This document shows, piece after piece, positions 2,241-19,203 of a stretch of DNA of 64,000 nucleotides. The notes below the pieces were generated by a model, which was given only the letters and a program-made list of their open reading frames with translations, did no database searches and had not been told where the DNA came from. The position numbers and the translations under genes were made by a program. Position 1 is the first letter of the stretch. Each line of letters opens with the position of its first letter. Source of the DNA: Nitrosopumilus sp. (GTDB lineage Archaea; Thermoproteota; Nitrososphaeria; Nitrososphaerales; Nitrosopumilaceae). The stretch is from contig OZ245040.1 of NCBI GenBank assembly GCA_965224195.1, positions 1,088,001-1,152,000 of the forward strand, given 5' to 3'.

Positions 2241-3319
2241 TTATTCTTTCACATAACTCTCTGTTTTTAGCTCTTTTCCTGATTCTAACCTAATCGTATA
2301 TGCACTTAGTTTACTTTCAAAAATTGCCAGTACTGGCTCTTTAGTCTGCTTGATAGTTATCACTATGCATTCTTTTTGATCCTTTTTCTCATTCTCTAAG
2401 GAAATTTGTTGAAGAATAACATAACTGGGATCATATTCTGTAAATTTGTTAATCATAGTTCTTAACGATTGCATTCTATCCTCTAAATCTTCAACACCTA
2501 CAATTTCTCTAGTTCTATCGGTAATGCCTATGATGATAATACCATCATTTGAATTGGCATAACTGACAATATGCTGTGCAAATTCAAATTGTTTGATGTT
2601 TTTTGCCCCTGCTCCTTTTATACTCCAAAAATCTAATGTTTTTTTAAAATCCCACAAATTGTTTTCTACTATGCTTTGTTTTCTAACATAATTGATCACT
2701 TTTTTAAAAATTATATGTCTAAAAATTTATTCTGCTCTTGAATTTTTTTAATATCCAAAATTATTAGATTTACCGAGTCTCTAATTTTATGACAATATTC
2801 TTCAAAATCATGCATGATTTCATTTTCAGCTCTTGTAAACAGATACTTTTTACCTATTACTGGATGGCCAAGAAACGTCTCAGTAATCGTGCAGCTGTTC
2901 CCAGCTGCATACAAAGCAGGTGTAGAAGAAGCAATCGCCAACAAGAAACGTCTCAGTAATCGTGCATCTGTTCCCAGCTTGTAAACAGATACTTTTTACT
3001 TATTACTGGATGGCTTTCAGGATCTAATGGATCAAAAGCATCTAAATGCAATTCATGATAAATTCTACCTACTTGGTAACCTCCATACATTACAAAACCT
3101 AATGCAATTTCAGCGTAATGCTTGATTGAAGATTCACTGTCCGCTATTATTCTGGCAGTGGTTGATGGAAATCTTTCAGAACGTCTACTTGTACCCCATC
3201 CTTTATATGAAAATAAAATTGTAGGCACATCTTCATCTTTTTGTTTTAACTATTCGGTATATTCTAATAATTCAGTAATTTCTTTGTCATTCTTATCTGC
3301 AAATTTTTTTATTTTTTGA
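2241..3319 (-). pseudogene. Fragmented gene with C-terminal AlbA_2/Schlafen-like domain
   Basis: 2241..2699 has WDFK...SYANSNDGIIIIGITD; fragments 2711..2944 and 2953..3228 overlap in HPVI(S/G)KKYLFT and fuse if the 146-bp insertion is removed; 5' end abuts an IS remnant. Confidence 0.6.
2832..3014. repeat. Nested direct repeats A-B-X-B'-A' with 73-bp period
   Basis: A 2832-2868 / A' 2978-3014 (37 bp, 1 mismatch); B 2869-2906 / B' 2942-2979 (38 bp, 1 mismatch); X 2907-2941 (35 bp, unique). Confidence 0.9.
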
Positions 3320-3551
3320 ATGATCTATCCATTGATCACAGCAAAATGTTTGGAAAAGGAGATGTGTACATTAATGGGATTGAAGGTTTTTAGAGTTTTG
3401 TCAAACAGAACATGGCAAAGCATCATGGGGTGAATCCGGGAAAGTTCTTGTTGTACATCAAGGAGATGGAATGCAGATACAACAGTAGAGATGTAGATAC
3501 TTTCTCATTATTGCTTGATTATTGCCTTGGTGATGAATAATTGAGTCACCC
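3320..3551 (+). mobile_element. IS1595-family transposase 3' remnant
   Basis: Translates to SIDHSKMFGKGDVYINGIEGF*...KHHG...YIKEMECRYN, homologous to the IS at 60296-61201. Confidence 0.8.
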
Positions 3552-3776
3552 ATTATTTTTTGTCGCATTGTTTGTAAATTGGCTCAAAGAATGGTAACGG
3601 CAAATGTATGACATTAAGATATTTAATTATTTGATCATGTCTCAAGATATTTTGTTTTTTGATTGTGACTTTATTCATTATAGAATGATCAAAATACAAA
3701 AAACCAGAAGATGTCGTTATAATTTGCACATATCCTAAAACTCTCAACACTCTGACAAAATGATGCCAGCCTATTT

Positions 3777-3980
3777 TCAGATAAACACCACCTTGTGCAT
3801 AATATCTTTTGTAAAAAATTCGGATTTGGATTCTGGAAAGGCCTCTACATATCCGGCAATAATTTTATCCAATTCTGATTTTATCTCCTGTTTGTTTTTT
3901 CCAACAACAATTATCTCTGGTTTGTCGTAGCATTGAGCTAGCAATCCCTGCTCACTTTTTACCAGTTTTACTTGCAAATT
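3777..3980 (-). CDS. HicB-like small protein (true start uncertain)
   Basis: VKLVKSEQGLLAQCYDKPEIIVVGKNKQEIKSEL resembles the HicB N-terminal fold pattern; C-terminal part of ORF 3777..4088. Confidence 0.4.
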   Translation of the reverse strand, partial: NLQVKLVKSEQGLLAQCYDKPEIIVVGKNKQEIKSELDKIIAGYVEAFPESKSEFFTKDIMHKVVFI

Positions 3981-4449
3981 ACCCAAGATATAGGTATAAT
4001 AAATATGATATATATAAAATGTTATTATCCGGATTGATGCTGTCCTGCATACCACACTCCTTGTATCTGAGGATTTTGGAATGTGCAAGCATTACTTTTA
4101 CTTCTTTTGTAGTATATGCTCGCAAGCTAGGTGTCTTTTGCCTCTGTGGTAACATCTTGTAGATTATTTCCCAATTAAGATGAACTCGATTCATCACAAA
4201 GAAGTGTTTTATTCCTCCAAGCTTTGACGGTATGGAGTTAGGGTTTGCAGTCTGCCTCAAATACAGAACATAGTTTTCAAGCATTATCTGTAGATCATTG
4301 ATGAAAATTTCCAATAACTTCTTTTCATTAAATAATCCTGTGAATTTTCTGAATTGAGTAAGGTTTGATGTATAATTCTTTTTGGTATGCTTTGACTTGA
4401 TTGATTCTTCAAACAAGATCATGCTTCTTTGTTTTGTAAGCAATGTCAA
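3979..4449 (-). pseudogene. Tyrosine recombinase, N-terminal fragment lacking the catalytic domain
   Basis: Paralog of 14288..15217 (LTKQRS..LFEESIKSK, ..NPNSIPSK..GIKHF, LRAYTTKEVK), then similarity is lost. Confidence 0.85.
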
Positions 4450-4677
4450 ACATTACATTCTTGTAATCCTTGGCAAAATTTTCTTTGCTTATGTTTGCAT
4501 ATAGCAATATAGAATATGGAGTTTTAATCCTCAATCTCTTGTTTTCTGCTGGTACCACCGTAACGATATTTTCATTTCTTAGTGTCAGATGATTCCTTTC
4601 TTTTAAGTCATGGTGAATCTTTGTTTTTGCAGGTATCTTATCATCTGGTTGCCTGATATTCTTGGAAACTTTGACAT
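4447..4677 (-). pseudogene. hicA: HicA toxin pseudogene
   Basis: MSKFPRISGNQMIRYLQKQRF, then stop/frameshift; paralog of 15310..15546. Confidence 0.75.
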
Positions 4678-4889
4678 TATTGTTTGATAATAAGCATGTT
4701 AAATTCAGTTAAATTTCCACTCTCTTCGGCTGCAAGCTCTACTGCTTCCTTTATATTTTCCATCATATCTCCGAATGTATCGCTTTCTGATACTGCATGT
4801 AGTTCGTCACATCTGCCAACAAATCCGCCATCTTCAAGATCCTTGGTTATTACTACTGTGTAGGTCTTTTTTTGTAGGGTTGTACTCGT
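4677..4889 (-). pseudogene. hicB: HicB antitoxin with start codon mutated to ACG
   Basis: Open frame STTLQKKTYTVVITKDLEDGGFVGRCDELHAVSESDTFGDMMENIKEAVEL; paralog of 15546..15752. Confidence 0.75.
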
Positions 4890-6175
4890 AACGTAGATAG
4901 TCTCAAAAGCGTTAAAAATATTGCTAGTCTTATGCGTATTTTTGTAAGTAAAAAGAGATTATTGATTGCATCAACTCCTGACAGGATTGACGCAATCTTT
5001 TGCTGTTCCTTAATGTTTTTTGTATATGGTAGTTTTGTATTGGCAATTTCATCTTGATTTATTGCATCATAAGTAGTTCCTTGTGAATAAACTAAAAATC
5101 TTTTTTTACTGTGATTGACAAGGTAGTAACAATATAATAGATCGCATTCTATTGGATTTAACGCTGCTACTCCTCTACCTAAGCAACATTTCTTTCTTGT
5201 TAAGTTAATTTCTCCAACAGGAGCCCTTACAGAAAATAGAATCGAATTATCATTTGTAGTTTTTTTAGGATCAGTACACCAAATCATTGGATTTGGATAT
5301 GTTGCTCCAAAATCTGTTACTCCTTGATAGAATGGCAATCCTTTTTCTTCTTTATTATAACTTTCAGATGGTGGAGATTGACCCATTGTAATTTGTAGTA
5401 TCTTTGCAGTAGGTTTGATCTCCCATTCTTCTGGAATCTCATCATATTTTCCAAATAATCCCCTTACCCTCTTGAATTTTTTATGCCCTATCCCCCTGGT
5501 CAGAAGCTCCTGCATTAGACCTTTCTTCAATAGCTCAGCTTTGTTTACAACTTCTTGTGTACATTCAATTAATGCGTCAACTCTAGAGAGGATTGACGCA
5601 ATCTTTTGCTGTTCATGAATTAGAGGCAAGAGAATCAAAATTTGTTTTAGGTTTTTTTTGGATAGTCCATAAACTGAAACTCCTGTAACTCTTGCAATAA
5701 TTTGTTTCGTGACAAAATTCATTGATGTCAGATATGCTCGAAAATCAACCGAAGTATTCCCTTTTACATCTCGGATTGCAATCGTATGTAACCCTGAGAC
5801 TAGTTTCTTTCCATCAACATTTTTCAACAATATGCTTGTGCCAGAACCTTCATGATCCTCTGATGCATCTGCTATGACAAGGTCTCCTTCTTTTAACAAC
5901 GAGATATTTTTTACTTTAATTTTATCAATGAAGGGAATTTCTTCATTTTTGCAATCAAGAAAAATTTTCCATTTTGTATGCATGTCTCCATAATGGATAT
6001 AGTTCACATCACCTTTGTCTTCAAGATCGTTACGTGAGTTTGTAGCTGTGGAAAGGAATTCAAACACTTCCTCAAATGTTTTGGTCTTCCAATCTTCAGG
6101 AATCTCTATCTCTTTTCCAAACAACCATTTAACAAGCTTGTATCCTTTTTGCGGTGGCGTGCAACCATCCTTCAA
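4853..6175 (-). CDS. hsdS: Type I R-M specificity subunit, allele 1 (TRD1a+TRD2a); conserved C-terminal helix replaced by a read-through tail
   Basis: Two IPE(D/E)W...EQQKIASILS units; after SGVDA the sequence departs from the canonical tail seen in 12766..14013. Confidence 0.9.
   Translation of the reverse strand: MKDGCTPPQKGYKLVKWLFGKEIEIPEDWKTKTFEEVFEFLSTATNSRNDLEDKGDVNYIHYGDMHTKWKIFLDCKNEEIPFIDKIKVKNISLLKEGDLVIADASEDHEGSGTSILLKNVDGKKLVSGLHTIAIRDVKGNTSVDFRAYLTSMNFVTKQIIARVTGVSVYGLSKKNLKQILILLPLIHEQQKIASILSRVDALIECTQEVVNKAELLKKGLMQELLTRGIGHKKFKRVRGLFGKYDEIPEEWEIKPTAKILQITMGQSPPSESYNKEEKGLPFYQGVTDFGATYPNPMIWCTDPKKTTNDNSILFSVRAPVGEINLTRKKCCLGRGVAALNPIECDLLYCYYLVNHSKKRFLVYSQGTTYDAINQDEIANTKLPYTKNIKEQQKIASILSGVDAINNLFLLTKIRIRLAIFLTLLRLSTLRVQPYKKRPTQ
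4965..5008 (-). repeat. Palindromic hsdS site S1 (38-bp inverted repeat of S4)
   Basis: 4971-5008 is the exact reverse complement of 13870-13907. Confidence 0.9.
5418..5614 (-). repeat. Long inverted repeat, left copy (contains site S2)
   Basis: 5448-5614 is the exact reverse complement of 13234-13400 (167 bp); 5418-5440 matches 13408-13430. Confidence 0.95.
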
Positions 6176-6278
6176 TGTCTGATTTCAAATGTTATTCCAT
6201 ATTAAGGCATAAACCATCATTTACAAACCCCGATAAATACAATACATTAAAAAACTCTGAAACACATATCAGTCTAAA

Positions 6279-9200
6279 ATGAATTTTGATGTAGGCAAAG
6301 GTCCTGAAGCAACAGAATCAGAACTTCCAGCACTAGAGCAGCTAGTTGCAATGGGATACCAATACATCACACAGTCAGAACTCAACAAAACACGTACAGA
6401 TTATCGTGATGTATTACTCTATGATAGACTTGAGCAAGCAATTAGACGCTTAAATCCTGATTTTGATGATGATGGGATTCATGATGCAGTAGCTCAAATC
6501 GGTGAGGATAGATTCCCTTACAATTTAGATCCTGTTGAAACAAATGAGAAAATCAGGGCAAAACTAATCGGACTATCAAAGTCTGGTGGATTAGAACCCG
6601 TTGTTGTAACTCAAAATTTTGGTGAAGGGCCAGTTCAAAAGGTGGCAAAAATATTTGATCTTGATAATCCACAAAACAATGACTTTGTAGTAACAAACCA
6701 ATTCCAACTAGAAGGATTAAAGAATCCAATCTTTCCCGATGTAACAATTTTTGTAAATGGCATCCCTCTAGTTCAAATTGAATGCAAATCCCCTGCAATA
6801 CCTGACCCAATTGGTGAGGCAGTGGATAGAAAAAATTTCTACAAGTATCAGCAAAGAGGTAACGGGTATGAAAAACTATTTTTCTACAATCACTGTCTAA
6901 TTGCAGCTTGTGGAACTTTGGCTAGAGTTGGAACACTAAATTCTAATTTAAACTATTATTCTAGATGGGCAAAGCCATATCCGTTATCTGTAGATGATGT
7001 AAAACAACTATGCAATGGCAAGGCAAGAGAGCAAGAAATTCTCATTGCAGGATTACTTGCAAAAGAAAATCTGCTAAACCACATGCAAAATTTTGTACTC
7101 TATGATACAATTAACCACAATCGTGTCAAAATGATTGCAAAACATCAGCAATACAAAGCAGTATCTGAATGTGTGAATCGTTTAAAATTAGGCGAGGACA
7201 TCAAAGACAAGGGCGGAATCATTTGGCACACACAAGGTTCAGGTAAATCATTTTCCATGTTATGGTTTGCATCGCAGCTAATGTACAAGTTTGGCAATCC
7301 TCCAATAATGATAGTTACAGACAGAAAACAACTAGACAAACAAATTCATGACACTTTTAAAAAATGTGGATTTCCCAGTCCAATTAGAGCAAAAAATGGG
7401 AAGCACTTGGCAGAACTATTGAAAAACCCTAAAGGCAAAACCATCATGGCAATTATTGACAAGTTTGCAACAGAGCATGGGGCACATACTGATGAGAAGG
7501 TAATATGCCTAGTTGATGAGGCACACAGAAGTCAGTACAAGATAAATGCCGAACAAATGCGAGTATCCATGCCTAATGCCGTGTTTTATGGCTTTACAGG
7601 CACGCCAATTGACAAAAATGACAAGAGTACACCTCGTGTCTTTGGACCAATCATTGACAAGTATGGATTCCGAGAATCCCAAGAAGATGGTGCAACATTG
7701 CCAATCAGGTATCATGGAAGACTATCTGAATTGTTTGTTGAAGGCGGAGAAACAATTGATGAACTCTTTGAGCGAATTATTGGCAGTGATCCTACAGTAA
7801 ATGAAGAACTCAAAGACAAACTCAAAAAACAATGTGCCACAAAGGGAAAGATTGCAGAAGCTCCATCAAGAATCAAACGAATATCCTTGGATTTAGTCAA
7901 ACATTACACTACTCACATTGAACCAAACGGATACAAGGCAATGCTTGTTGCACCATCAAGGGAAGCCGCTGTACTTTACAAAAAAAATTTAGATGAACTA
8001 AACGCGCCACCATCAAAAATTATCATGACTTCTGATTTGGGTGAGAAAGGAAAAGATGAGCAAAGTTGGGATGAATATCGCCTCTCCTCTGAACAAAGAG
8101 AACAAGAAGCAGAACTATTCAAGAGTGCAGATAATCCGACCAAGATCCTAATTGTAGTTGACATGTTGCTTGTAGGATATGATGCACCAATTTGTCAGGT
8201 ATTATATCTTGATAAGGGAATTAGAGAACACAGCTTACTTCAAGCAATTGCCAGAGTAAACAGACCGCATGATGAACCAAAGACACATGGATTAATTGTA
8301 GATTATTCAGGTGTCACCAAAGAATTACAAACAGCACTTGAAATGTTTGAGAAAGATGACATTGAAGGGGCATTGGATCCACTAAATGAATTTCTACAGT
8401 TACTAAAAGATAGACATGCTGATGCAATTGTCTTTTTCAAAGGTATTGACAGAGAAGACAATGATGCAATCATAGAATACTTTGAACCATTAGATCTACG
8501 TGATGAGTTTGAGCAAGCATTCAAGCTGTTTTCAAGGGCATTGGATTCTGTAATGCCTGATAAAGAAGCAGACCCATACATTGAGGATTTCAAGTTCCTA
8601 AGTAAGGCAAGGCAGATAATTCGCACCTATTATGAGGGTGTCAAGCCCAGTACACGCCCATATGCCAAAAAAATCCAGAAATTAATCGATGATCATATTC
8701 GTTCACTATGTATTTCTGAATTAATTAATCCAATGGAGATTACATATGAGAATTTCTTGGCCTTTGTCAAAAAGAAGGTAAAAAGTGAGAAAGCACAAGC
8801 TGCCTTGATCAAAAACAAGGCAATCCAGGTAATTGAAGAACTAAGGGGGAACAATCCTGCATATTATGAGAAACTCTGGGAGAGACTACAAAAAATTATT
8901 GAAGAGGAAGAAAAAAGACGCAGAGAAAATGCACAATACTTTATACATCAAGAAGTATATGCAGAAGTCTATGACAAAGCACTAGCAGAAGAAAAAGAAA
9001 GGCAAAAAGTATTCGGTGATTATGAAGCAACCCAATTTGAATTTGCATTGTATGGAGAATTTAATGAAATAAAAGGCAGTCGTGAGGAATCAATTGAATT
9101 AACAAAAAAGATTCACTCTCAATTGGTTAAAGAAACTGAAATTGTCGGATGGAGAACAAAAAACAGTGTTGAGAAAAACATGAAGACTATACTATATGAT

Positions 9201-9284
9201 ACACTTAGTGTTGCAGGATTTGAAGATGAAAAACTCTCCAAACTTTCAGAGAAGATACTAACATTGGCAAAGAACAGATTATGA
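6279..9284 (+). CDS. hsdR: Type I restriction endonuclease subunit R
   Basis: PD..FVNGIPLVQIECK nuclease motif, HTQGSGKS, DEAH, QAIARVNR. Confidence 0.97.
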   Translation: MNFDVGKGPEATESELPALEQLVAMGYQYITQSELNKTRTDYRDVLLYDRLEQAIRRLNPDFDDDGIHDAVAQIGEDRFPYNLDPVETNEKIRAKLIGLSKSGGLEPVVVTQNFGEGPVQKVAKIFDLDNPQNNDFVVTNQFQLEGLKNPIFPDVTIFVNGIPLVQIECKSPAIPDPIGEAVDRKNFYKYQQRGNGYEKLFFYNHCLIAACGTLARVGTLNSNLNYYSRWAKPYPLSVDDVKQLCNGKAREQEILIAGLLAKENLLNHMQNFVLYDTINHNRVKMIAKHQQYKAVSECVNRLKLGEDIKDKGGIIWHTQGSGKSFSMLWFASQLMYKFGNPPIMIVTDRKQLDKQIHDTFKKCGFPSPIRAKNGKHLAELLKNPKGKTIMAIIDKFATEHGAHTDEKVICLVDEAHRSQYKINAEQMRVSMPNAVFYGFTGTPIDKNDKSTPRVFGPIIDKYGFRESQEDGATLPIRYHGRLSELFVEGGETIDELFERIIGSDPTVNEELKDKLKKQCATKGKIAEAPSRIKRISLDLVKHYTTHIEPNGYKAMLVAPSREAAVLYKKNLDELNAPPSKIIMTSDLGEKGKDEQSWDEYRLSSEQREQEAELFKSADNPTKILIVVDMLLVGYDAPICQVLYLDKGIREHSLLQAIARVNRPHDEPKTHGLIVDYSGVTKELQTALEMFEKDDIEGALDPLNEFLQLLKDRHADAIVFFKGIDREDNDAIIEYFEPLDLRDEFEQAFKLFSRALDSVMPDKEADPYIEDFKFLSKARQIIRTYYEGVKPSTRPYAKKIQKLIDDHIRSLCISELINPMEITYENFLAFVKKKVKSEKAQAALIKNKAIQVIEELRGNNPAYYEKLWERLQKIIEEEEKRRRENAQYFIHQEVYAEVYDKALAEEKERQKVFGDYEATQFEFALYGEFNEIKGSREESIELTKKIHSQLVKETEIVGWRTKNSVEKNMKTILYDTLSVAGFEDEKLSKLSEKILTLAKNRL

Positions 9285-9823
9285 TCAGTAAACTTCGCTA
9301 TGGCAATAGTGTCATAGAATACCAAATTATTAAAAGTAAGAGAAGAAAGACTTCGGAAATTAGAGTGGATGAAAACGGAGTAGAGATTCATACTCCAATT
9401 ACAAAAAAAGATTCAGAGATTCAAGAGATTGTTAACACCAAAAAACAATGGATATTCAAAAAACAATTAGAGTTTACAGACAGAAATAAAAGACAATTCA
9501 AAACTACAACAAAAACTCTTGAATATCTTGAGAAAAGATCTTGGAAGCTGGCAGAGAAGATTGGTGTTAAACCAAAGAAGATAGTAGTAAAAAATCTCAA
9601 ATCAAGATGGGGAAGTGCTGGAAAAACAGGAACAATTACGCTTAATCAGGCGTTAACCAGAATGCCTCCGAGAATAATCGACTATGTGATAATTCATGAA
9701 TTATGTCATTTGAAAATTAAAGGACATTCAAGTAGATTTTGGAGTATTCTTTACTCATACAACAAAGACTATCAAAAAAACATTCTCTGGTTAGAAAATA
9801 ATTTCAAGGATTTGTTGGGATGA
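9281..9823 (+). CDS. M48/YgjP (DUF45) zinc metallopeptidase commonly linked to hsdR
   Basis: KSRWGS, DYVIIHELCHL..GHS. Confidence 0.9.
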   Translation: MISKLRYGNSVIEYQIIKSKRRKTSEIRVDENGVEIHTPITKKDSEIQEIVNTKKQWIFKKQLEFTDRNKRQFKTTTKTLEYLEKRSWKLAEKIGVKPKKIVVKNLKSRWGSAGKTGTITLNQALTRMPPRIIDYVIIHELCHLKIKGHSSRFWSILYSYNKDYQKNILWLENNFKDLLG

Positions 9824-9929
9824 CAAATGACTTGCAATTACTCAAAATAGGAATAAAAATGGGAGCCCACATTTGACATAACCAAAAATAAAAACAGAAT
9901 ATTTTATAAATTAATTATGGTGTTATAGA

Positions 9930-10695
9930 AGTATGTTGGAATTAAAACGTGTTCAGCATATCTTTATTGAATGCTATTCTGAACCTATTGATACCATTGA
10001 AACATGGAACAGAGCTTGTCATACAATTGCAATTAAGAATGATTCCGCATTTTACAACACTACAAAAGGTAGTAGCTCGAATCAGTCAAGAAATATTACA
10101 CACTGCAATTGGCAGATTCATTGGAATGGTATCACCTGGAAAAATATTTGCAGGAATCGATGGTACATGATTTGAGAGAAGACACGCCATACTGCAGATG
10201 TAATCTCAGGCATGCATTTACAAAATGCTCAACAGGATCTGGTATGAAATTGCAGTTGATTTGTGCAGTTGTAATCCAACATAATCCCATATCTCATGAC
10301 ACAAAGCATTTCCCAAAACTGTTTTCTAAAATGCTTGATGTTGTTGCAATGTGGATTATAGTGCTGGACAAGTAATACGATGCAGAACCAATACGCAAGA
10401 TGATCAAAGATGAGAATGGCTTATCTTTGATTCCTGTAAGAAACAAAGATTGTCTGATTAGCAGAACAAAAGGAAGATTACAGAAAACAGATGAGAAGAG
10501 AATTTGATTATTCATATACCATGAGAGAAATAAAACTGGAACGATATTTTCTGTAATTAAGAGAAGGTTTGATTCTGAAATCAAATCGTACAATGATGCC
10601 ATGAAAACAAAAGAGCTGTTGTATCGTGTCTTGGCTTGCAATTGTCATAGGATGCGTTTGATTTCTCTAGTTTGTATGATGATTTCTAGGAAGTC
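9930..10695 (+). mobile_element. Decayed IS5-like DDE element
   Basis: IPHFTTLQK and AGIDGT fragments; 3' part homologous to 18598..19116; right end TGATTTCTAGGAAGTC at 10680-10695. Confidence 0.75.
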
Positions 10696-10772
10696 TTTTA
10701 TCTTAAATACAACTGACTCATCTAGCATCATCAGAATCCATATAACCCTGAATAATAGGTATCATTACAGAT

Positions 10773-12257
10773 TTGTCTGAAAAAGTTACACTTGAGATGC
10801 TAAAATCACACCTGTGGAAGGCATCAGACATTCTCAGAGGCAGTCTTGATGCATCAGAGTATCGAGAACCAGTAATGACCATTCTATTCCTAAAGCGACT
10901 AAATGATAGATTCGAGGAAAATGTTGAGAAACTGATTGCAGATGGAAAATCCGAAAAGGAAGCAAATCAAGACTTTAGACATGACTTTTTTGTTCCAAAA
11001 GAAGCAAGATGGGATAAACTATCTGCAGTAAGAAGCAGAGTTGGAGAAAAAATTGACAAGATTTGCAAACTAATTGAAAAATCAAATGAGAAGCTAGAAG
11101 GTGTTCTGACTAATACAAAGTATTCTGATCCTAGAAAGTATCCTGATGACAATTTAGCAAACTTGATTTCCCACTTTAATTCCCCACGATTAAGAAATTC
11201 CGATTTGGAGAAAGAAGATATTTTCGGGGATGCATATGAGTATCTCTTAGAGCAGTTTGCAGACGCAACAAAGAAGAAAGGTGGAGAGTTTTTTACACCA
11301 CGTGAAGTTGTAAATTTGCTTGTCAATTTGGTAGACCCCAAAGAAGGAATGAGAGTTTCAGACCCCACATGTGGCTCTGGTGGTATGTTGATTGTATCAC
11401 GTCATTACGTGGAGCAAAACAAGGGAAATCCACGTGACTTGGTACTAGATGGTCAGGAATCAAACTATGGAAACTTGGCAATGTGCAAAATGAACATGGT
11501 ATTGCATGGAATTTCAGACTTTACAATAGAGTATGGCGATACACTATCCAATCCTAGACAAGTAGATGGTGGAAAACTCAAAACATATGACAAGGTACTT
11601 GCAAATTTCCCATTCTCAATGGATTGGGATAACAACGGTGCAGAAAAAGATCCTTACAATCGATTCAGATTTGGCATTCCTCCTGCAAAAGGCAAGGCAG
11701 ATTTTGCATTTATTCAGCACATGTATTCGCAATTAAATGAAAAAGGTCAAGCTGCAATCGTCTGTTCTCAAGGCGTTTTGTTTAGGAGTTCAGTTGAGAG
11801 TAAAATTCGTGAAGGACTAATTGCAGAGGATGTAATTGAGGCAATAATTGCGATTCCTTCAAATTTATTCTTTGGAACAGGTATTCCTGCATGTGTTTTG
11901 ATATTAAACAAAAACAAACCAGCAAAAAGAAAGGAAAAAATAATTTTCATTTATGGTGCTAAAGATTACTTGGATGGTAAAAATAGAAACAAGCTTCGTG
12001 ATGAAGACATTACAAAAATAGTCAAGGCATTTTCTAATTTCAAAGATGTTGATAGATATTGCCATGTTGCAGATATTGATGAACTAAAAGAAAATGAGTT
12101 TAACCTTAATGTTCCAAGATATGTAGACATATCAGAACCTGAGGAAGAGATTGATATTCAGAATGCTTGGGATGAACTCAAAGAGACCAATACAGAACAA
12201 GAAAAACTAGAAAAGCAAGTAAAATCAGATTTGATGGAATTGGGAATAAATCTCTGA
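10773..12257 (+). CDS. hsdM: Type I R-M methyltransferase subunit M
   Basis: GEFFTP, DPTCGSGG, motif IV ANFPF, NLFFGTGIP. Confidence 0.97.
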   Translation: MSEKVTLEMLKSHLWKASDILRGSLDASEYREPVMTILFLKRLNDRFEENVEKLIADGKSEKEANQDFRHDFFVPKEARWDKLSAVRSRVGEKIDKICKLIEKSNEKLEGVLTNTKYSDPRKYPDDNLANLISHFNSPRLRNSDLEKEDIFGDAYEYLLEQFADATKKKGGEFFTPREVVNLLVNLVDPKEGMRVSDPTCGSGGMLIVSRHYVEQNKGNPRDLVLDGQESNYGNLAMCKMNMVLHGISDFTIEYGDTLSNPRQVDGGKLKTYDKVLANFPFSMDWDNNGAEKDPYNRFRFGIPPAKGKADFAFIQHMYSQLNEKGQAAIVCSQGVLFRSSVESKIREGLIAEDVIEAIIAIPSNLFFGTGIPACVLILNKNKPAKRKEKIIFIYGAKDYLDGKNRNKLRDEDITKIVKAFSNFKDVDRYCHVADIDELKENEFNLNVPRYVDISEPEEEIDIQNAWDELKETNTEQEKLEKQVKSDLMELGINL

Positions 12258-12317
12258 TTTGTAATATTTGTTCTACAAATTAGAAAATGTTTTGTGCAGT
12301 TATGTGTATACTATCAC

Positions 12318-12704
12318 ATGGAGATGATTATTCTAGTAGGCATTGCAGGAAGTGGAAAAACTACATGGTGTACAAAGTATTTGCCACACCATACAAGAAT
12401 ATCACTGGATGACATAAAAAATCATAACAGAAAACTGGAAGATAAGATGATAATATCTGAACTGGAAAAAGAAAATAATATTGTTATAGATGACACAAAT
12501 CTTACACGAGACATACGTGAAAGACACATTACAATTGCTAGAGAGTATTGTACTTTAGTAAATGCAATTTATTTTTGCATTGACATACAAAAAACATATG
12601 TGCAAAATTTCAAGCGTGAAAAAAAGATACCATGCTATGTTTTAGATCGCCAGAAAAAACAGCTTGAGATACCTCGTGAAGAAGAAGGTTTTGGGTTTGT
12701 CTAG
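12318..12704 (+). CDS. AAA_33 / polynucleotide-kinase-like P-loop protein, possibly 3'-truncated
   Basis: LVGIAGSGKTT, VIDDTNL, EEGF. Confidence 0.75.
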   Translation: MEMIILVGIAGSGKTTWCTKYLPHHTRISLDDIKNHNRKLEDKMIISELEKENNIVIDDTNLTRDIRERHITIAREYCTLVNAIYFCIDIQKTYVQNFKREKKIPCYVLDRQKKQLEIPREEEGFGFV

Positions 12705-12783
12705 TTTTTAAATACATGAAAACTTGTAATCAGAATAGCCCGTTTGACCAGTCTTAAAATATGATGTGAGATGTCGCTTGATA

Positions 12784-14013
12784 ATGAAAAAACCAAAAAA
12801 AGGTTGCAAACTAGTCAAGGGATTATTTGGAAAGGAGATCGAGATTCCAGAAGAATGGAAAGTTGAAAAATTCAATGATAGAATTAAACTAGAATATGGC
12901 TCAAGTTTAACAGCAGAACAACGAGATAATGCAGGTAATCCAGTATATGATTCAGGTGGAATTATTGGATTTCATTCTAAACCTATTGTGAATAATATAG
13001 GAATTGTTGTAGCAAGAAAAGGTTCTATTGGAAATATTTTCTATGAAAAACAAGATTTCTTTCCAATAGATACTGTATATTATATTACAAAAAATGAAAC
13101 GACATTCAATTTACTTTTTCTTTTTTATTACCTAACAAATATGAAATTAGAAAATCTTGCAATAGTTACCTCTAAACCTGGAATTAGCAGAAATGAAATT
13201 TACTCACTTAAAATAATATTTCCTCTACTTCCCGAACAGCAAAAGATTGCGTCAATCCTCTCTAGAGTTGACGCATTAATTGAATGTACACAAGAAGTTG
13301 TAAACAAAGCTGAGCTATTGAAGAAAGGTCTAATGCAGGAGCTTCTGACCAGGGGGATAGGGCATAAAAAATTCAAGAGGGTAAGGGGATTATTTGGAAA
13401 GGAGATCGAGATTCCAGAAGAATGGGAGATTAGAAAGTTAGATGGAATAGGAGAGTTAATTGGTGGTGGCACACCTGATTCTACAAATCTAGAGTATTGG
13501 AATGGAGAAATATTATGGGCAGTTCCCACAGATATTACAAAATTACAAACTAATCTGATTGAAAATACTGAAAGAAAGATTACAAAAAAAGGATTGGATA
13601 ACAGTTCTGCTAAATTATTACCTATCGGTACAGTTTTGATTACTTCTAGAGCTACCATTGGTAAATGTGCAATAACTACAAAATCCATTACAACCAATCA
13701 GGGATTTCAGAATATTATCTGTAATAAAGATCAGAGTAATTTATTCATATTTTATGTAATGAAACATAATCAAAATGTATTAGTGAGATTATCTTATGGA
13801 ACAACATTTTTAGAAATCAGCAAAAAAGATATGCGGAAAATGCTAGTATGTTTGCCGTATTCTAGTTACGAACAGCAAAAGATTGCGTCAATCCTGTCAG
13901 GAGTTGACGCATACATACAGAAGAACCAAGAATACAAGGAAAAGTTGGAGAGGCTTAAAAAAGGCCTTATGCAAAAACTGCTTACAGGTCAGATCCGTGT
14001 AAAAATCAAATAA
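12784..14013 (+). CDS. hsdS: Type I R-M specificity subunit, allele 2 (TRD1b+TRD2b), complete
   Basis: Two TRDs and a canonical LKKGLMQKLLTGQIRV C-terminus; follows hsdM. Confidence 0.95.
   Translation: MKKPKKGCKLVKGLFGKEIEIPEEWKVEKFNDRIKLEYGSSLTAEQRDNAGNPVYDSGGIIGFHSKPIVNNIGIVVARKGSIGNIFYEKQDFFPIDTVYYITKNETTFNLLFLFYYLTNMKLENLAIVTSKPGISRNEIYSLKIIFPLLPEQQKIASILSRVDALIECTQEVVNKAELLKKGLMQELLTRGIGHKKFKRVRGLFGKEIEIPEEWEIRKLDGIGELIGGGTPDSTNLEYWNGEILWAVPTDITKLQTNLIENTERKITKKGLDNSSAKLLPIGTVLITSRATIGKCAITTKSITTNQGFQNIICNKDQSNLFIFYVMKHNQNVLVRLSYGTTFLEISKKDMRKMLVCLPYSSYEQQKIASILSGVDAYIQKNQEYKEKLERLKKGLMQKLLTGQIRVKIK
12819..13425 (+). repeat. 40-bp perfect direct repeats bracketing TRD1b (12819-12858 and 13386-13425)
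   Basis: GGGATTATTTGGAAAGGAGATCGAGATTCCAGAAGAATGG occurs twice. Confidence 0.9.
13234..13430 (+). repeat. Long inverted repeat, right copy (contains site S3)
   Basis: Reverse complement of 5418-5614 except for a 7-nt block. Confidence 0.95.
13870..13911 (+). repeat. Palindromic hsdS site S4
   Basis: TGCGTCAA-TCCTGTCAGGAG-TTGACGCA. Confidence 0.9.
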
Positions 14014-14041
14014 TTTCTGAGTTATAACATATTAAAAATTA

Positions 14042-14248
14042 TTATTGTCTATCTTTATTATCGGATTTTTTCCAGATTTGTATTTGTCCACCATATACAT
14101 CATTGTCATATGCCATTGAAGGAATTTGAGCATAAAATCCTGTACGGCCAGTGCTAAAAGTTTTAGCTGGCAATAATACCTCATGTTCTTTGCCATCAGG
14201 CATTGTTAGTTTGGCTGAGACAAAATTTGGTTTCTCATTAGACATCAT
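14042..14248 (-). CDS. Small hypothetical protein downstream of the recombinase
   Basis: 68 aa with KTFSTGRTGFY motif, predicted beta-rich; co-oriented with the recombinase. Confidence 0.65.
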   Translation of the reverse strand: MMSNEKPNFVSAKLTMPDGKEHEVLLPAKTFSTGRTGFYAQIPSMAYDNDVYGGQIQIWKKSDNKDRQ

Positions 14249-14287
14249 TTGTTTTTGTTGTCTGTGGCTTGTTAATTAATTGAAAGT

Positions 14288-15217
14288 TTATCTGATCTCT
14301 ATTTTATACATTATTTTCTTAAATTCGGTAAATAACTCCTTCAATGTTGGTGTAAAGTAAATTCCATCAAGGCCATTTTTGTGACCCATTAGTTTCTCTG
14401 CAATGTTATAGTTTATGCTATTGTCCAGTTTTAGTATGGTATTATATCGCTTTCTAAATCCATGATCCGCTTGTACATCAAAACGATTGTCATACTTTAG
14501 TCTTGTAATGTTGCTTTTTTGTATTGTTCTGTATATTACAGAGCGAACTCCACTCCATCCTATCTGCTTAGGGCGAAATTTGCATGTAGCAAATATGGGT
14601 GTGTCTTTGTAAAATATCTCACCCTTACTTTTTCGATAGTCATGATATGCATTTACTGCTTTTGTTGCTTGTGGTGTGAGAAATGCCCAATATTCTTCTA
14701 TATCTCCAGCATAGAGCAGTACTGCTGTACAGCCATAAGGCATTTTCATCATATGTCTTATTGACAAATCATGATCAAAGATGCCTATCCTGGCACCAGT
14801 AACTGCAAAGAAATGAATTAACGCCTTGTTTCTAGGATTTGTTGCGCTATGTATTAGTTCTTTTACTTCTTTTGTCGTATATGCTCGCAAGCTTTGTGTC
14901 TTTTGTTTTTGTGGGAACATCTTTGTGATTATATTCCAATTGAGGCTGATCTCATTCATAACGCAAAAATGCTTTATGCCATGAAATTTTGACGGTATTG
15001 AGTTAGGATTTGTGGCGCGTTTTAGTTCAATCAAGTAATTTTCTAGCTTGTATTGTAATTCCAAATTAGGCATAGTAACTAATTGATTTTGATGTGAAAG
15101 ATCTGCAAATTTTAGAAATGAATCAAGATGTGCGGTATAATTCTTTTTTGTATATTTTGATTTGATTGATTCTTCAAATAATAGAGAACTACGTTGTTTA
15201 GTTAGTAAAATACTCAT
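14288..15217 (-). CDS. Tyrosine recombinase/integrase, intact
   Basis: Catalytic residues TGAR, HGFRK, LMGH and GIYF. Confidence 0.93.
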   Translation of the reverse strand: MSILLTKQRSSLLFEESIKSKYTKKNYTAHLDSFLKFADLSHQNQLVTMPNLELQYKLENYLIELKRATNPNSIPSKFHGIKHFCVMNEISLNWNIITKMFPQKQKTQSLRAYTTKEVKELIHSATNPRNKALIHFFAVTGARIGIFDHDLSIRHMMKMPYGCTAVLLYAGDIEEYWAFLTPQATKAVNAYHDYRKSKGEIFYKDTPIFATCKFRPKQIGWSGVRSVIYRTIQKSNITRLKYDNRFDVQADHGFRKRYNTILKLDNSINYNIAEKLMGHKNGLDGIYFTPTLKELFTEFKKIMYKIEIR

Positions 15218-15309
15218 GTATTACTTTATGGCAAAATGTTTATTTCTGCACGTATGTTTATGAAACTAGATTGTTTTGATTTTTATAATCATATTATTTT
15301 TACAGCATA

Positions 15310-15546
15310 TTATTTTACATTTCCTTTGTTGTGATCACCTACAAATTCATCCCTGGTTATTTCTACAGCTTTTAATATTTGTAAAAACAAACCTGGTTTT
15401 ATCATATTTTGGCCTGCAGGAATAGTTACACGTATACTGATATTTGCTAATGTAACATGACTGCCTTTTCTATTTTTTACAAAGAATCCCTTTTTAATTA
15501 AATATTTTATCATCTGGTTGCCTGATACTTTTGGAAGTTTTGTCAT
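15310..15546 (-). CDS. hicA: HicA-family mRNA interferase toxin
   Basis: KLPKVSG..MIKYL.KKGF...RKGSHV. Confidence 0.9.
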   Translation of the reverse strand: MTKLPKVSGNQMIKYLIKKGFFVKNRKGSHVTLANISIRVTIPAGQNMIKPGLFLQILKAVEITRDEFVGDHNKGNVK

Positions 15547-15752
15547 TACTTTAGTACAATAAGCATATTAAATTCATCTTGGCTGCTTTCAGATGCAAGC
15601 TCTACAGCTTCTTTGATATTTTCCATTATCTCGCCATACGTTTCGCCTTGAGAATAGGCATGTAATTCCTCACATGTGCCAACAAACCCGCCATCTTCTA
15701 CGTCTGCTGTAACTATAATGGTGTAAGTTTTTTTTTCCAGTGTAGTACTCAT
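15546..15752 (-). CDS. hicB: HicB-family antitoxin
   Basis: EDGGFVGTCEELHAYSQGETYGEIMENIKEAVEL; likely start MSTT at 15752; TAATG coupling to hicA. Confidence 0.9.
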   Translation of the reverse strand: MSTTLEKKTYTIIVTADVEDGGFVGTCEELHAYSQGETYGEIMENIKEAVELASESSQDEFNMLIVLK

Positions 15753-15824
15753 TGTATACACATTGTGCACATATGCAAATATATTAAATATACTGTTGAT
15801 TTTATGCATAATTTCAAATATGTT

Positions 15825-15977
15825 ATTGCATCAACTCCTGTCAAGGATTGACGCAATCTTTTGCTGTTCATAGATTAGAGGCAAGAGAATCAAAATTTGT
15901 TTTAGGTTTTTTTTGGATAGTCCATAAACTGAAACTCCTGTAACTCTTGCAACAATTTGTTTCGTGACAAAATTCAT
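15825..15977 (-). pseudogene. hsdS: Third hsdS fragment: 3' end of TRD1a plus site S5
   Basis: 15844-15977 matches 5589-5722 with 3 mismatches in 134 bp; the outer arm ATTGCATCAACTCCTG matches S1. Confidence 0.9.
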
Positions 15978-16190
15978 AGACGTGATGGAAAACATTTCAG
16001 ATTCTCTTGATGATAGTATGATGGAGGAAACTACATCAGTTTATACAGACAAGGGATTGACAGTGTAGCCATCAGAGATCATCTGAAAAACAAAAGCATT
16101 GTTCCATGCATTCCAAAAAGAGCTTTCAAGAAAAACAACAGTAAAAAATACAGTCACAAAAACTACAACAGGGCGAGATTTGTAGCGGAG
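15978..16190 (+). mobile_element. IS5-family transposase orfB fragment
   Basis: FIDVMENISDSLDD...VYTDKG, homologous to 17920..18316. Confidence 0.8.
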
Positions 16191-17357: not shown

Positions 17358-18611
17358 TTATTCGTCTGTTGGTTTGTCAATCAATCTTTTTTGGATTTTC
17401 CAATAAGCCCACTGATAATGACTTTCTTCACATACAATGAACTCGTCTCAAAACAGATCATTTAGTAAATAATTGATGATCATTTAGATCTATGAACAGC
17501 AAAATCTCAAATCAATTCATGAAATTCAAAGAATTGACAGGCAAACAGTGGGAAATGATTGAATCATGTGCTCCTCCACCTGCAAAAACTGGCAGGCCAA
17601 GAGATACGGACAGAAAAATCATCAACGGAATCATTTATGTTCTGACAACTGGATGCAGATGGGATGACATGCCAAAAAAATACGGCGATGACTCCACTGC
17701 AAACAGAAGATTAAACTCTTGGCAGCAGAAAGGAATCTGGAAAAAGATTTTTCCTTCAATGATAAAATCAGCACATAAACAAAGCAAGGTTAATCTGCAA
17801 AGGATATCAGTTGACTCATCAAGTGTTGCTGCAAAAAAAGGGGCAACTGCATAGGAAGAGATGGTTTCAAGAAGGTTACAGGCACAAGGATTCATGCTGC
17901 CGTAGTAGATGGCAATGGATTGCCAGTATCCATACTATCGAGTCCTGCAAATACTCATGACAGTACGAAATTCATTGATGTGATGGAAAACATTTCGGAT
18001 TTTCCTGGTGATGAATCAGCTAAACAGATCACATCAGCATATGCAGACAGGGGATACGATTCAAAATCAATTCGAGATTATTTGAAAAATAGAAATATCA
18101 ATCCATGCATTCCATTTGGAAAAAATAACAATAAAGCAACAAAAAACAAGTCATACAAAAAATACAATAAAATTCGTTATGTTGTGGAGGGATTCTTTGC
18201 TTGGTTCAAAAATGGATTCAGAAGGACAGCAATCAGATATGAAAGAGCAGGCAGAAAATTATCTGGCATTTGTCAATATTGCATCATTTTTGATGTATTG
18301 TAGGGTTTTGAGATGAGTTGGACATAATCTTTGTCATTGTATTGAAACGCATATGGTTCGTTTTCTTCCAATAAGTATTCTTTAACTTTGATAGTATCGT
18401 TAACAACTTTAACAGGTTGAAGATTTTTAGAATAAAACTCAAACAATTCTCCCAACAAGGAAGTGACAATACCTGAAGTAGTTGAGTCACTTCCAACAGT
18501 ATAAAACGCTGATCTGTCGTTTGCTATTTGTTGAGATTTTCTTGGATTATCAAAACTTGTTAATTGACTCATACCACAATATCTCCATAATTCATTATTA
18601 ACTTTTTCCAA
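17358..18611 (-). pseudogene. Hypothetical gene interrupted by the IS5 element
   Basis: ...NDKDYV from 18273..18611 plausibly continues as IVCEESHYQWAYWKIQKRLIDKPTDE* on the other side of the IS. Confidence 0.5.
17440..18319 (+). mobile_element. IS5-family (IS427-group-like) element with two ORFs
   Basis: TIRs AACTCGTCTCAAAAC (17440) and GTTTTGAGATGAGTT (18305); orfA LTGKQW..TGCRW; A7G slippery run at the orfA/B junction; orfB ADRGYDS, RYE. Confidence 0.92.
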
Positions 18612-18615
18612 ATCG

Positions 18616-19203
18616 GGGCTTCCTAGAAATCATAATCCAAACCAAAGAAATGATACACATCCTGTGACAACAAGCCAACACACGGTACAGCAGCTCTTTT
18701 GTCTTCATGGTATTATCATACGATTTTATTTCAGAATCAAACCTTCTTTTTACTACAGAAAACATCGTCTCAGTCTTGTTTCGCTCATGGTACAATGAAT
18801 AATCAACTCTTCTCATCAATTTTCTGTATCCTCCTTTTGTTCTGTTAATCAGACAGTCTTTGTTTCTTGTAGGAATCATGGAAATAGTATTTTTACCTCG
18901 AATTCTCTTGTGAACTGGTTCTGCATCACGCCCATCCAGCCATTCAACAAATGACTCGTAGCTTTCTGACTCGTACTGTCCAAGGACTGGTAAAATGATG
19001 TGCTGGTGTATTGAAAATGTATGCTTTGATTTTGGATATACAAACAACGGAGCATTCATTTTCTTTAGAATCTGGCGCATGAGGGAGATCATCATGCGTT
19101 GGTGTTTGTTTTTCATGAAATGAGAAATGTGTAATTATTGATGGATCTTGATAATTAGTTTGATCTACAATTAGGTAAAATCTTGGTGATTTCCAGGAAG
19201 CCC
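18616..19203 (-). mobile_element. Internally deleted IS5-like element (non-autonomous, 588 bp)
   Basis: 17-bp TIRs GGGCTTCCTAGAAATCA / TGATTTCCAGGAAGCCC; transposase N- and C-termini joined (YHERNKTETMFSVVKRRF). Confidence 0.85.

Follow-up and report, generated by a model that had tools for sequence, protein, structure and literature searches.

A Type I restriction-modification locus of Nitrosopumilus organized as a probable hsdS-shuffling inverton with HicAB inside the recombinase module

Background

Type I restriction-modification (R-M) systems in which inversion rearranges the specificity gene, hsdS, are well known in bacteria, as is apparent from the available parts of several published studies (PMC7394358, PMC7672463, PMC9881135). 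Here, we analyze a Type I R-M locus in a 64,000-nt stretch of the genome of an ammonia-oxidizing archaeon, Nitrosopumilus sp. (GenBank assembly GCA_965224195.1, contig OZ245040.1, positions 1,088,001 to 1,152,000 of the forward strand; hereafter, the window, with all coordinates counted from its first nucleotide unless chromosome C1 or another locus is named). In this locus, two opposed hsdS genes are associated with a gene for a tyrosine recombinase (int) and with a candidate HicAB toxin-antitoxin pair. We consider it probable that this Type I R-M locus has the build of an hsdS-shuffling inverton, with HicAB located inside the recombinase module.

The closest described systems are the pneumococcal SpnD39III/cod locus with PsrA and the four-way switch of Streptococcus suis, which likewise combine a Type I gene set with an inverted extra hsdS gene and with repeats located in the conserved regions of hsdS (PMC7394358, PMC7672463, PMC4948785, PMC7096588, in their available sections). 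According to the same sections, the bacterial invertons also share with the present locus a locus-encoded tyrosine recombinase and incomplete hsdS copies that serve as donors. Unlike these systems, the locus described here resides in an ammonia-oxidizing archaeon, encodes a XerA-like recombinase and includes HicAB inside the module, and its inversion is putative. The polarity of the incomplete copies differs as well: the pneumococcal donors reportedly lack the 5' end, whereas the donors proposed here lack the 3' tail. In the R64 shufflon, a single tyrosine recombinase, Rci, is said to exchange the C-terminal ends of one gene through short sites present in both orientations, and in the hsd locus of Mycoplasma pulmonis, two hsdS genes reportedly flank hsdR and hsdM, with the whole block being inverted. 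Recombination between the inverted sites denoted below S1 and S4, or S2 and S3, would invert the block as in M. pulmonis, with the difference that in this locus the recombining sites encode motifs of HsdS. The systems are unrelated in sequence, and no direct link between archaeal recombinases and Rci is reported in the available text of a review of the archaeal enzymes (PMC8371274).

Phase-variable Type I systems are usually viewed as a trait of host-associated bacteria. An inverton survey, as far as its available text goes, found invertons in 10 phyla of bacteria and in a single candidate phylum, with 91.9% of the inverton-positive genomes host-associated and 3.4% aquatic (PMC7672463). Archaeal hsdS candidates with inverted repeats, including one from Nitrosopumilus, are nevertheless already on record: the supplement of a REBASE survey lists Nitrosopumilus maritimus SCM1 (S1/S2.NmaSCMORF606P, with a 39-bp inverted repeat at the 5' ends) along with several methanogens (PMC7394358). 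In the available main text of that survey, the word 'archaea' occurs 0 times, and the archaeal cases are rows of a table only. Neither a recombinase nor hicAB is given in these rows, which also describe no C-terminal site and no tail-swap geometry, and the repeat lies at the 5' end and is not the motif studied here. Archaeal invertons have been called "minimally investigated" in the available part of one study (PMC10028968); a review of archaeal R-M systems mentions inversion, phase variation and recombinase 0 times (PMC11033074), and the review of archaeal tyrosine recombinases mentions restriction 0 times (PMC8371274). The cryptic integrated elements of thaumarchaea described by Krupovic et al. 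in 2019 likewise combine an integrase, HsdM, HsdS and HsdR, and an M48-type peptidase in variable genome regions; in the available text, these elements are interpreted as mobile and bounded by direct repeats, whereas the recombinase studied here is tied to inverted hsdS pairs (PMC6563490). None of the words 'inversion', 'HicA' and 'HsdS' appears in the main text of that paper (0 occurrences each). Our literature search found no description of a recombinase-HicAB-hsdS module, of the geometry of tail-less and tail-bearing hsdS genes, or of its conservation in Nitrosopumilaceae.

Results and discussion

A shared site inside two opposed hsdS genes

The locus encompasses a complete Type I gene set, hsdR, hsdM and hsdS, with Pfam matches that span each of the proteins. 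The hsdS1 gene, on the minus strand, and hsdS2, on the plus strand, are opposed across hsdR, a gene for a YgjP-like peptidase, hsdM and a small kinase-like gene (Table 1). Two further features expected of an inverting Type I system are present as well, namely, two or more opposed hsdS genes with internal inverted repeats, and a site-specific recombinase encoded in the locus. The longer inverted repeat shared by hsdS1 and hsdS2 (repeat I1, 5418-5629 and 13219-13430) extends over 212-213 nt at 95-96% identity (96% over 213 nt by blastn); the second one, 42 nt at 98% identity, joins sites S1 and S4 and has unrelated flanks on both sides. Furthermore, as the initial annotation of this region had it, the minus-strand order site-hicB-hicA-tyrosine recombinase occurs twice. 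The intact copy spans 14288-15875 (copy B), and the decayed one 3979-5008 (copy A). Direct repeats (families D1, D3, D4, D5 and D9, connecting 4095-5014 with 14860-15875) and blastn agree on this repetition.

The core of the site is a 26-mer, GAACAGCAAAAGATTGCGTCAATCCT, that occurs exactly five times in the window (at 4983, 5589, 13234, 13870 and 15844; sites S1 to S5, respectively). The expectation from shuffled sequences is 0.00, and 0 of 100 shuffles reached five occurrences; genome-wide, there are 5 matches with up to 3 mismatches, all 5 inside the R-M locus. Read in the sense of hsdS, all five sites translate to EQQKIASILS(G/R)VDA. The site is the coding sequence of a conserved HsdS motif that closes every target recognition domain (TRD), and not an intergenic att site as part of a separate palindromic platform, as had been proposed. 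The apparent palindrome is the dyad TGCRTCAA-N12-TTGAYGCA, which encodes (I)ASILSxVDA. Sites S2 and S3 close the first TRDs of hsdS1 and hsdS2, respectively, and in each gene the central conserved region then follows. S1 closes the second TRD of hsdS1, with no C-terminal helix after it, and the reading frame enters the leader of the decayed antitoxin gene, hicB'. S4 is the sole site in the window with a true tail after it (13912-14013).

Sites S1, S2 and S5 have one orientation, and S3 and S4 the opposite one; the direct orientation of S5 relative to S1 and S2 and the spacing of about 10.9 kb (10860 nt) between S1 and S5 are as initially annotated. The accompanying statement that the sites are almost identical holds for the 26-nt core, which is the same in all five, but not for the centre of S5, which is longer and altered: the dyad of S5 spans 29 nt instead of 28 nt, with a centre of 13 nt compared to 12 nt in S1 and with three nucleotides changed. 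Inverted partners share the dyad centre (28/28 nt identical for S2 and S3, 27/28 for S1 and S4), and between direct-orientation sites of the same gene there are 3-4 differing nucleotides, all confined to the dyad centre.

Tyrosine recombinases generally need matching site centres, and given this need, the layout favours inversion between S2 and S3 and between S1 and S4, and disfavours both deletion within a gene and excision between S1 and S5. We propose that Int recombines inverted partner sites of matching centre. Recombination of S2 with S3 would invert 7.6 kb and swap the second TRDs, and recombination of S1 with S4 would invert 8.9 kb and pass the single tail from hsdS2 to hsdS1, so that the two reactions together could yield up to four TRD combinations, that is, specificities. 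Recombination of S4 with S5 would once have handed the tail to a third hsdS gene, since truncated by an insertion sequence (IS). The conserved regions of HsdS form a coiled coil that holds the subunit together, and in view of this role, a tail-less hsdS copy is probably a silent donor.

Exchange of TRD material is the most likely function of the recombinase. This much of the initially suggested capture or exchange of TRD cassettes by an integron-like platform stands, whereas integron features were not found. An integron comprises an IntI-type integrase, an attI site and cassettes that lack promoters and have an attC hairpin at their ends; the repeats here do not end cassettes but consist of HsdS codons, in frame and within genes, and Int is nearest to archaeal XerA.

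Conservation of the architecture

Searches with int matched 98 of 251 genomes of the family (this genome included) at E <= 1e-20, and full-length matches with at least 54% identity were found in only 9 of the 250 other genomes, a tally that includes three unpublished genomes outside the context analysis. We compared the 20-kb contexts of 20 int loci, 10 of them close (L046-L055, at least 53% identity) and 10 distant (L056-L065, 37-48%). Among the close loci, hsdS adjoins int in six (L047, L048, L050, L051, L053 and L055), opposed hsdS pairs are present in five and the order hicB-hicA-int in four; two of the ten loci run off contig ends. Neither hsdS nor hicAB was found in any of the 10 distant loci. 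The inverted repeats of the opposed hsdS genes extend over 860 nt at 98% identity in L048, 208 nt at 92% in L050 and 146 nt at 92% in L055, with weaker repeats in L051 and L053.

The exact pattern of the C-terminal dyad was found in 10 stretches among 185,579 species representatives, all 10 in records titled Nitrosopumilaceae, Nitrosopumilus, Cenarchaeum or Thaumarchaeota, and three further dyad contexts (L076, L077 and L073 together with L078) hold the same parts. At 8 of the 10 tail-less C-terminal sites, hicB or int comes next on the same strand, the exceptions being L048:2961, with hsdR next, and L078:5027, convergent with int. Of the 9 tail-bearing sites, 6 are oriented convergently with int. 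The recurrent geometry is a tail-less hsdS followed by hicB, hicA and int, with int facing the intact tail of the opposed hsdS. In other genomes of the family, homologues of the int-hicAB unit are preceded by hsdS and the same dyad, immediately upstream of hicB, which is the outcome that the initial annotation had anticipated for this check. Past S1, the sequence (INNLFLLTKIRIRLAIFLTLLRLSTLRVQPYKKRPTQ) shows homology to the one that follows the tail-less site of L051, from another genus, so that this junction is an old and conserved one. Searches of public metagenome collections yielded 0 contigs with the exact 26-mer and, for a degenerate version of the C-terminal dyad, one 1-kb contig that is uninformative. 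A loose dyad, TGNNTCAA-N12-TTGANNCA, was tried as a control for selection at the DNA level and rejected, as it matched 132 of the 251 family genomes, many in unrelated sequence.

The 2.07-Mb genome itself harbors five copies of the module detectable by tblastn, of which two are intact (B and Y), one is broken (X) and two are decayed (A and Z); four of the five are linked to hsdS. Copy Y belongs to a second Type I system (L015, C1:505000-523000) with another HsdS subfamily, in which the corresponding motif is EQKRIVxKIESIFxxIDA. This locus consists of hsdR, hsdM and two opposed hsdS genes, with an intact hicB-hicA-int module on the minus strand directly after the tail-less minus-strand hsdS; a small conserved open reading frame (ORF), orf68, and then hsdM come next after the module, and the interval between the plus-strand hsdS and the module holds a NucS-like gene and an additional HicB-like one. 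The inverted repeat of its hsdS genes is 504 nt long at 96% identity (622 nt at 91% by blastn), and the DNA of the motif forms the dyad TGAATCAA-N12-TTGATGCA, with 28/28 nt identical between the inverted partners. Judging from its sequence, locus Y is an independent replicate of the hsdS-int architecture in the same genome. In locus X, int and orf68 are convergent with half of an hsdS gene that retains the tail. The canonical unit would be an invertible piece that consists of the recombinase module and the tail, as in L050, L051, L055, locus Y and, here, the segment from S4 to S5, and the repeated platform would represent two copies of the conserved left edge of the switch, of which the left copy is dead.

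Footprints of exchange and search for rearrangement

Mosaic edges coincide with the site. In S5, the upstream flank is that of S2 (96% identity over 140 nt) and the downstream flank that of S1, the change from one to the other being located within the dyad centre. A database protein, P0018, matches residues 7-173 of HsdS2 with a single substitution, up to ...ASILSRVDALIE, beyond which its central region and TRD are different. Another database protein, P0001, contains the two TRD types of HsdS2 in the reverse order, with 65% and 76% identity. These cases show TRD exchange bounded by the site in nature, whichever the catalyst. Int would be the catalyst in the mechanism that we favour, and exchange may still be occurring in this strain.

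The read data consisted of three runs available as Logan contigs (0.97, 0.96 and 0.56 of the words, respectively) and one raw Hi-C run, of which about 2 in 100 was used, for a depth of approximately 2-10. No circle or deletion junction was found in these low-depth data. An apparent strain boundary at S1, suggested by variant letters and joints to the left of 4872, was rejected because it reflects cross-mapping from a paralogue with 90-97% identity (C1:1972147-1973758). Loose read ends at 15970 and 16001 adjoin an IS remnant with further paralogues in this genome. Contig C2 (7434 nt), the second one in the assembly, was considered as a possible alternative arrangement, but shows no similarity to chromosome C1.

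Several observations weigh against an hsdS-shuffling inverton. The Logan contigs of the three runs break at every repeat, the raw Hi-C run contained no joint at any of the S sites at its depth of only about 2-10, and three low-depth contig joints (5008->5564, 12861->13870 and 13284->13870), flagged 'between: not known', are uninterpretable. The predicted product of recombination between S1 and S4, a near-identical HsdS1 with a true tail, was not found in the protein database, where the only high-identity match was the protein of the window itself. Inversion in this strain is undemonstrated, the read and protein tests being low in power. In addition, S5 and its hsdS fragment are damaged, which leaves the switch partly dead here; conservation of the peptide could in part account for the dyad; the repeats could retain their high identity through gene conversion or homologous recombination, without Int; and two close orthologues of Int lack hsdS, namely, L046, which is flanked by IS elements, and L049, which is located beside core genes and also neighbours a split Type II methylase gene.

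Some of these points would equally fit a static relic, in which the conserved regions of the hsdS paralogues are homogenized by homologous recombination and int is a leftover integrase of the island, with no programmed switching. The 212-nt repeats are long enough for homologous recombination, the surroundings are decayed (copy A, the hsdS fragment at S5 and the IS remnants), and no alternative arrangement was detected in the low-depth reads or in the protein database. We nevertheless consider a relic unlikely. The int clade is tied to hsdS with a fixed geometry both elsewhere (6 of 10 close loci, compared to 0 of 10 for distant integrases) and in this genome (4 of 5 copies), different genera share the junction at which the tail-less hsdS meets the hicB leader, the 42-nt repeat of S1 and S4 has unrelated flanks on either side, and copy B retains intact int, hicA and hicB genes. 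A recombinase-HicAB-hsdS architecture conserved throughout Nitrosopumilaceae would imply that abundant marine nitrifiers diversify their restriction specificity, and possibly the methylome, within clonal populations, which would bear on virus-host dynamics in the ocean.

Island boundaries and excision

The locus sits in a variable island, approximately 2030-41580, delimited by conserved flanks in a synteny comparison with five genomes of the same genus, two of which show the left flank only. The other three hold 7.7-12.2 kb of unrelated DNA at this position. The initial annotation had proposed that the 10.9 kb between S1 and S5 are an excisable R-M cassette guarded by HicAB, which Int would excise as a circle in the manner of an integrative or integron-like element. 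The direct repeats S1 and S5 do enclose hsdS1, hsdR, hsdM, hsdS2, int and hicAB, the island is variable, and thaumarchaeal cryptic integrated elements with an integrase, HsdM, HsdS and HsdR, and an M48 peptidase have been published (PMC6563490, available text). The dyad letters, however, were not found in four supplementary files of that paper. Comparison with 3 of the 5 genomes places the island edges near 2.0 and 41.6 kb, which does not coincide with S1 and S5, and we rejected an att-flanked mobile element on the same ground, that the synteny boundaries are not at these direct repeats. Further against excision, the centre of S5 is 13 nt compared to 12 nt in S1, with three changed nucleotides, and the same motif is present also at S2, S3 and S4 within genes. 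The module is single in 9 other loci that hold hsdS (L047, L048, L050, L051, L053, L055, L076, L077 and L073 with L078), and in other loci where both sides are readable, the module is flanked by opposed hsdS genes, so that the conserved geometry is that of inverted hsdS pairs. Excision between S1 and S5 therefore appears very improbable. The suggestion that serial integration explains the tandem copies fares no better, given that copies A and B are only 62% alike in protein and 71-72% in DNA, as befits old paralogues rather than serial insertions. As a general caution, an integrase and direct repeats alone are insufficient to score such loci as integrated mobile elements.

The hicB-hicA-int module

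In copy B, the product of int is an XerA-like tyrosine recombinase in which R143, H252-x-x-R255, H279 and Y287 are invariant among 13 aligned sequences. It matches the archaeal XerA model NF040815 (XerA_Arch) with E = 4.7e-13 and the XerA structure 5hxy with E = 0.004. Identification of Int as XerA itself, the chromosome-dimer resolvase, was rejected: the score is 49.3 bits against an equivalog cut-off of 220, and the gene is not present as one conserved copy per genome. The match of HicA to PF07927 (38.6 bits, cut-off 27) covers profile positions 2-57 of 58, and the sequence includes the KGSH motif, which presumably holds the catalytic His. A HicB profile built from 6 orthologues matches 2yzt (E = 1.4e-6) and the HicB structure 6u0i (E = 0.004); no Pfam match and no DNA-binding domain were detected in HicB. 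HicA and the adjacent partner with the HicB fold, with their coupled genes, fit a type II toxin-antitoxin system of the HicAB kind.

The conserved start of hicB, at 15752, lies 74 nt past S5. Because this 74-nt spacer contains a TTTAATATA box, the stop of hicB and the start of hicA overlap (TAATG) and the gap between hicA and int is 92 nt, the three genes look co-transcribed, as an operon-like unit. HicAB belongs integrally to the recombinase module and is frequently conserved in it. It could stabilize the module, penalize deletions between direct sites, or tune the expression of int, and guarding against loss of the locus is a possible role. The available text of one study reports that, in the pneumococcus, the SpxA1-TenA toxin-antitoxin pair modulates how the invertase is expressed and, through it, which configuration hsdS adopts (PMC11709252). 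The parallel is distant: HicAB here is physically located between the site and int, and a regulatory link is putative. The fixed position of a toxin-antitoxin pair between a crossover site and the recombinase gene offers a testable link to programmed DNA rearrangement.

A more elaborate scheme, which we put forward tentatively and with considerable doubt, is that the segment carrying the recombinase operon, HicAB and the sole HsdS helix acts as a self-flipping 'tail donor'. A single flip would then select the working hsdS, alter read-through into hicB-hicA-int and keep the toxin gene within the piece that would be lost by erroneous recombination of direct sites. If so, ammonia-oxidizing archaea, including lineages labelled Cenarchaeum, would possess a toxin-coupled phase-variable methylome, which would be the first archaeal phasevarion.

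In copy A, int' retains residues 4-122 of 309 (62% identity by tblastn), and the catalytic domain is missing. The homology of hicA' resumes in another frame past the stop, tblastn yielding two pieces that differ in frame. For the hicB' region, the minus strand has no listed ORF of at least 40 aa. By blastn, copies A and B align at 4634-5008 and 15503-15869 (71% over 387 nt) and at 4095-4416 and 14860-15181 (72% over 328 nt), and the Int proteins are 62% identical; the two copies are old paralogues. Copy Z (C1:1972147-1973758, L016) is a duplicate of copy A with 90-97% identity, and the duplication stops 95 nt short of S1. It covers 3323-4872 of the window, that is, module A and about 600 nt downstream, and copy Z lies beside IS remnants; within the duplication, a 93-nt piece (4651-4743) aligned in the opposite sense to the remainder.

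The five copies or remnants in one genome, with A and Z being a duplicate pair of 90-97% identity, could also be taken to mean that hicB-hicA-int, with or without orf68, is a small selfish mobile element that targets the C-terminal hsdS dyad and splits genes, all the more as the residue at which the hicB-proximal hsdS genes are cut is the same in every case (...VDA) and L046 contains the module without hsdS. A simple insertion, however, would leave a co-directional tail just past the module, whereas the observed tail is inverted and is part of a second, complete hsdS. Moreover, the module is not bounded by direct repeats, and the duplication that produced A and Z ends 95 nt before S1 and not at the site. 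We regard this origin of the architecture as very improbable and retain the inverton interpretation, in which the module is part of the hsdS switch.

Other features of the locus

The coordinates of the features are collected in Table 1. The gene at 12294-12704, between hsdM and hsdS2, encodes a protein with weak matches, far under the cut-offs, to the polynucleotide kinase models TIGR04075 and TIGR01663. The hsdS fragment at S5 is truncated upstream by an IS remnant, 15967-16014 matching a transposase gene at 17965-18012 (repeat D11). The orf68 product (68 aa) has three gene copies in the genome, at 14042-14248 of the window, L014:9257-9460 and L015:11684-11893 (82% and 67% identity), each located beside int or hsdS. 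It has no Pfam or NCBIfam match and was not found by tblastn in 24 locus contexts of other genomes (20 + 4).

Table 1. Features of the Type I R-M locus and the associated recombinase modules in the window
Feature	Coordinates	Strand	Basis
int', recombinase remnant, N-terminal ~120 residues only	3979..4449	-	tblastn with intact int
hicA', broken toxin gene	4457..4680	-	stop after codon 24
hicB', antitoxin remnant	4687..4862	-	ACG for ATG; 60% identity to hicB
hsdS1: TRD1a, central region, TRD2a, C-terminal motif, without tail	4853..6175	-	PF01420, E 1.7e-33, two stretches
S1, C-terminal-type site of hsdS1, codes EQQKIASILSGVDA	4967..5008	-	repeat I5; translation
S2, central-type site of hsdS1, EQQKIASILSRVDA	5572..5614	-	inside 212-nt inverted repeat
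hsdR	6279..9284	+	HSDR_N, SWI2_SNF2 and T1R_D3-like domains
YgjP-like metallopeptidase ('M48' of the initial annotation)	9281..9823	+	PF01863, E 1.1e-36
hsdM	10773..12257	+	N6_Mtase, E 6.5e-106; HsdM_N
Small P-loop kinase-like gene between hsdM and hsdS2	12294..12704	+	AAA_33, E 6e-14
hsdS2, intact: TRD1b, central region, TRD2b, motif, tail YIQKNQEYKEKLERLKKGLMQKLLTGQIRVKIK	12766..14013	+	PF01420, E 1.5e-48
S3, central-type site of hsdS2	13234..13275	+	repeat and 26-mer match
S4, C-terminal-type site of hsdS2	13870..13911	+	98% complementary to S1 (I5)
orf68, small conserved ORF downstream of int	14042..14248	-	no family match
int, intact XerA-like tyrosine recombinase	14288..15217	-	catalytic residues; NF040815; 5hxy
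hicA toxin gene	15310..15546	-	PF07927; start overlaps hicB stop
hicB antitoxin gene, short form, ~68 aa	15546..15752 (ORF to 15809)	-	profile-structure match
S5, C-terminal-type site, altered 13-nt centre, frame broken	15827..15875	-	dyad comparison
hsdS fragment, last ~50 codons of TRD1a-like domain	15844..15983	-	96% identical to 5589-5728 (D2)

An element of approximately 315 nt is repeated in inverted orientation at 10379-10693 and 18619-18927 (81% identity), and a third copy in the genome is 88% identical. The first copy lies between the peptidase gene and hsdM, and the element may separate the transcription of hsdR from that of hsdM.

No tRNA gene was found in the window, and no clear step in G+C content marks the R-M locus; both results count against excision. 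Other components of the island are several IS remnants, along with a Schlafen/AlbA_2 gene (2241-2699) and a DUF3800 gene; the segment 19016-20000, which spans the DUF3800 gene, is 99.8% identical to C1:1425774-1426758, a recent duplication. The segment 22001-24000 has a G+C content of 0.44, compared to about 0.33 around it, and an AT skew of -0.34. At 2832-3014, within small minus-strand ORFs, there are two interleaved direct repeats of 37-38 nt (97% identity) with spacings of 73 and 146 nt.

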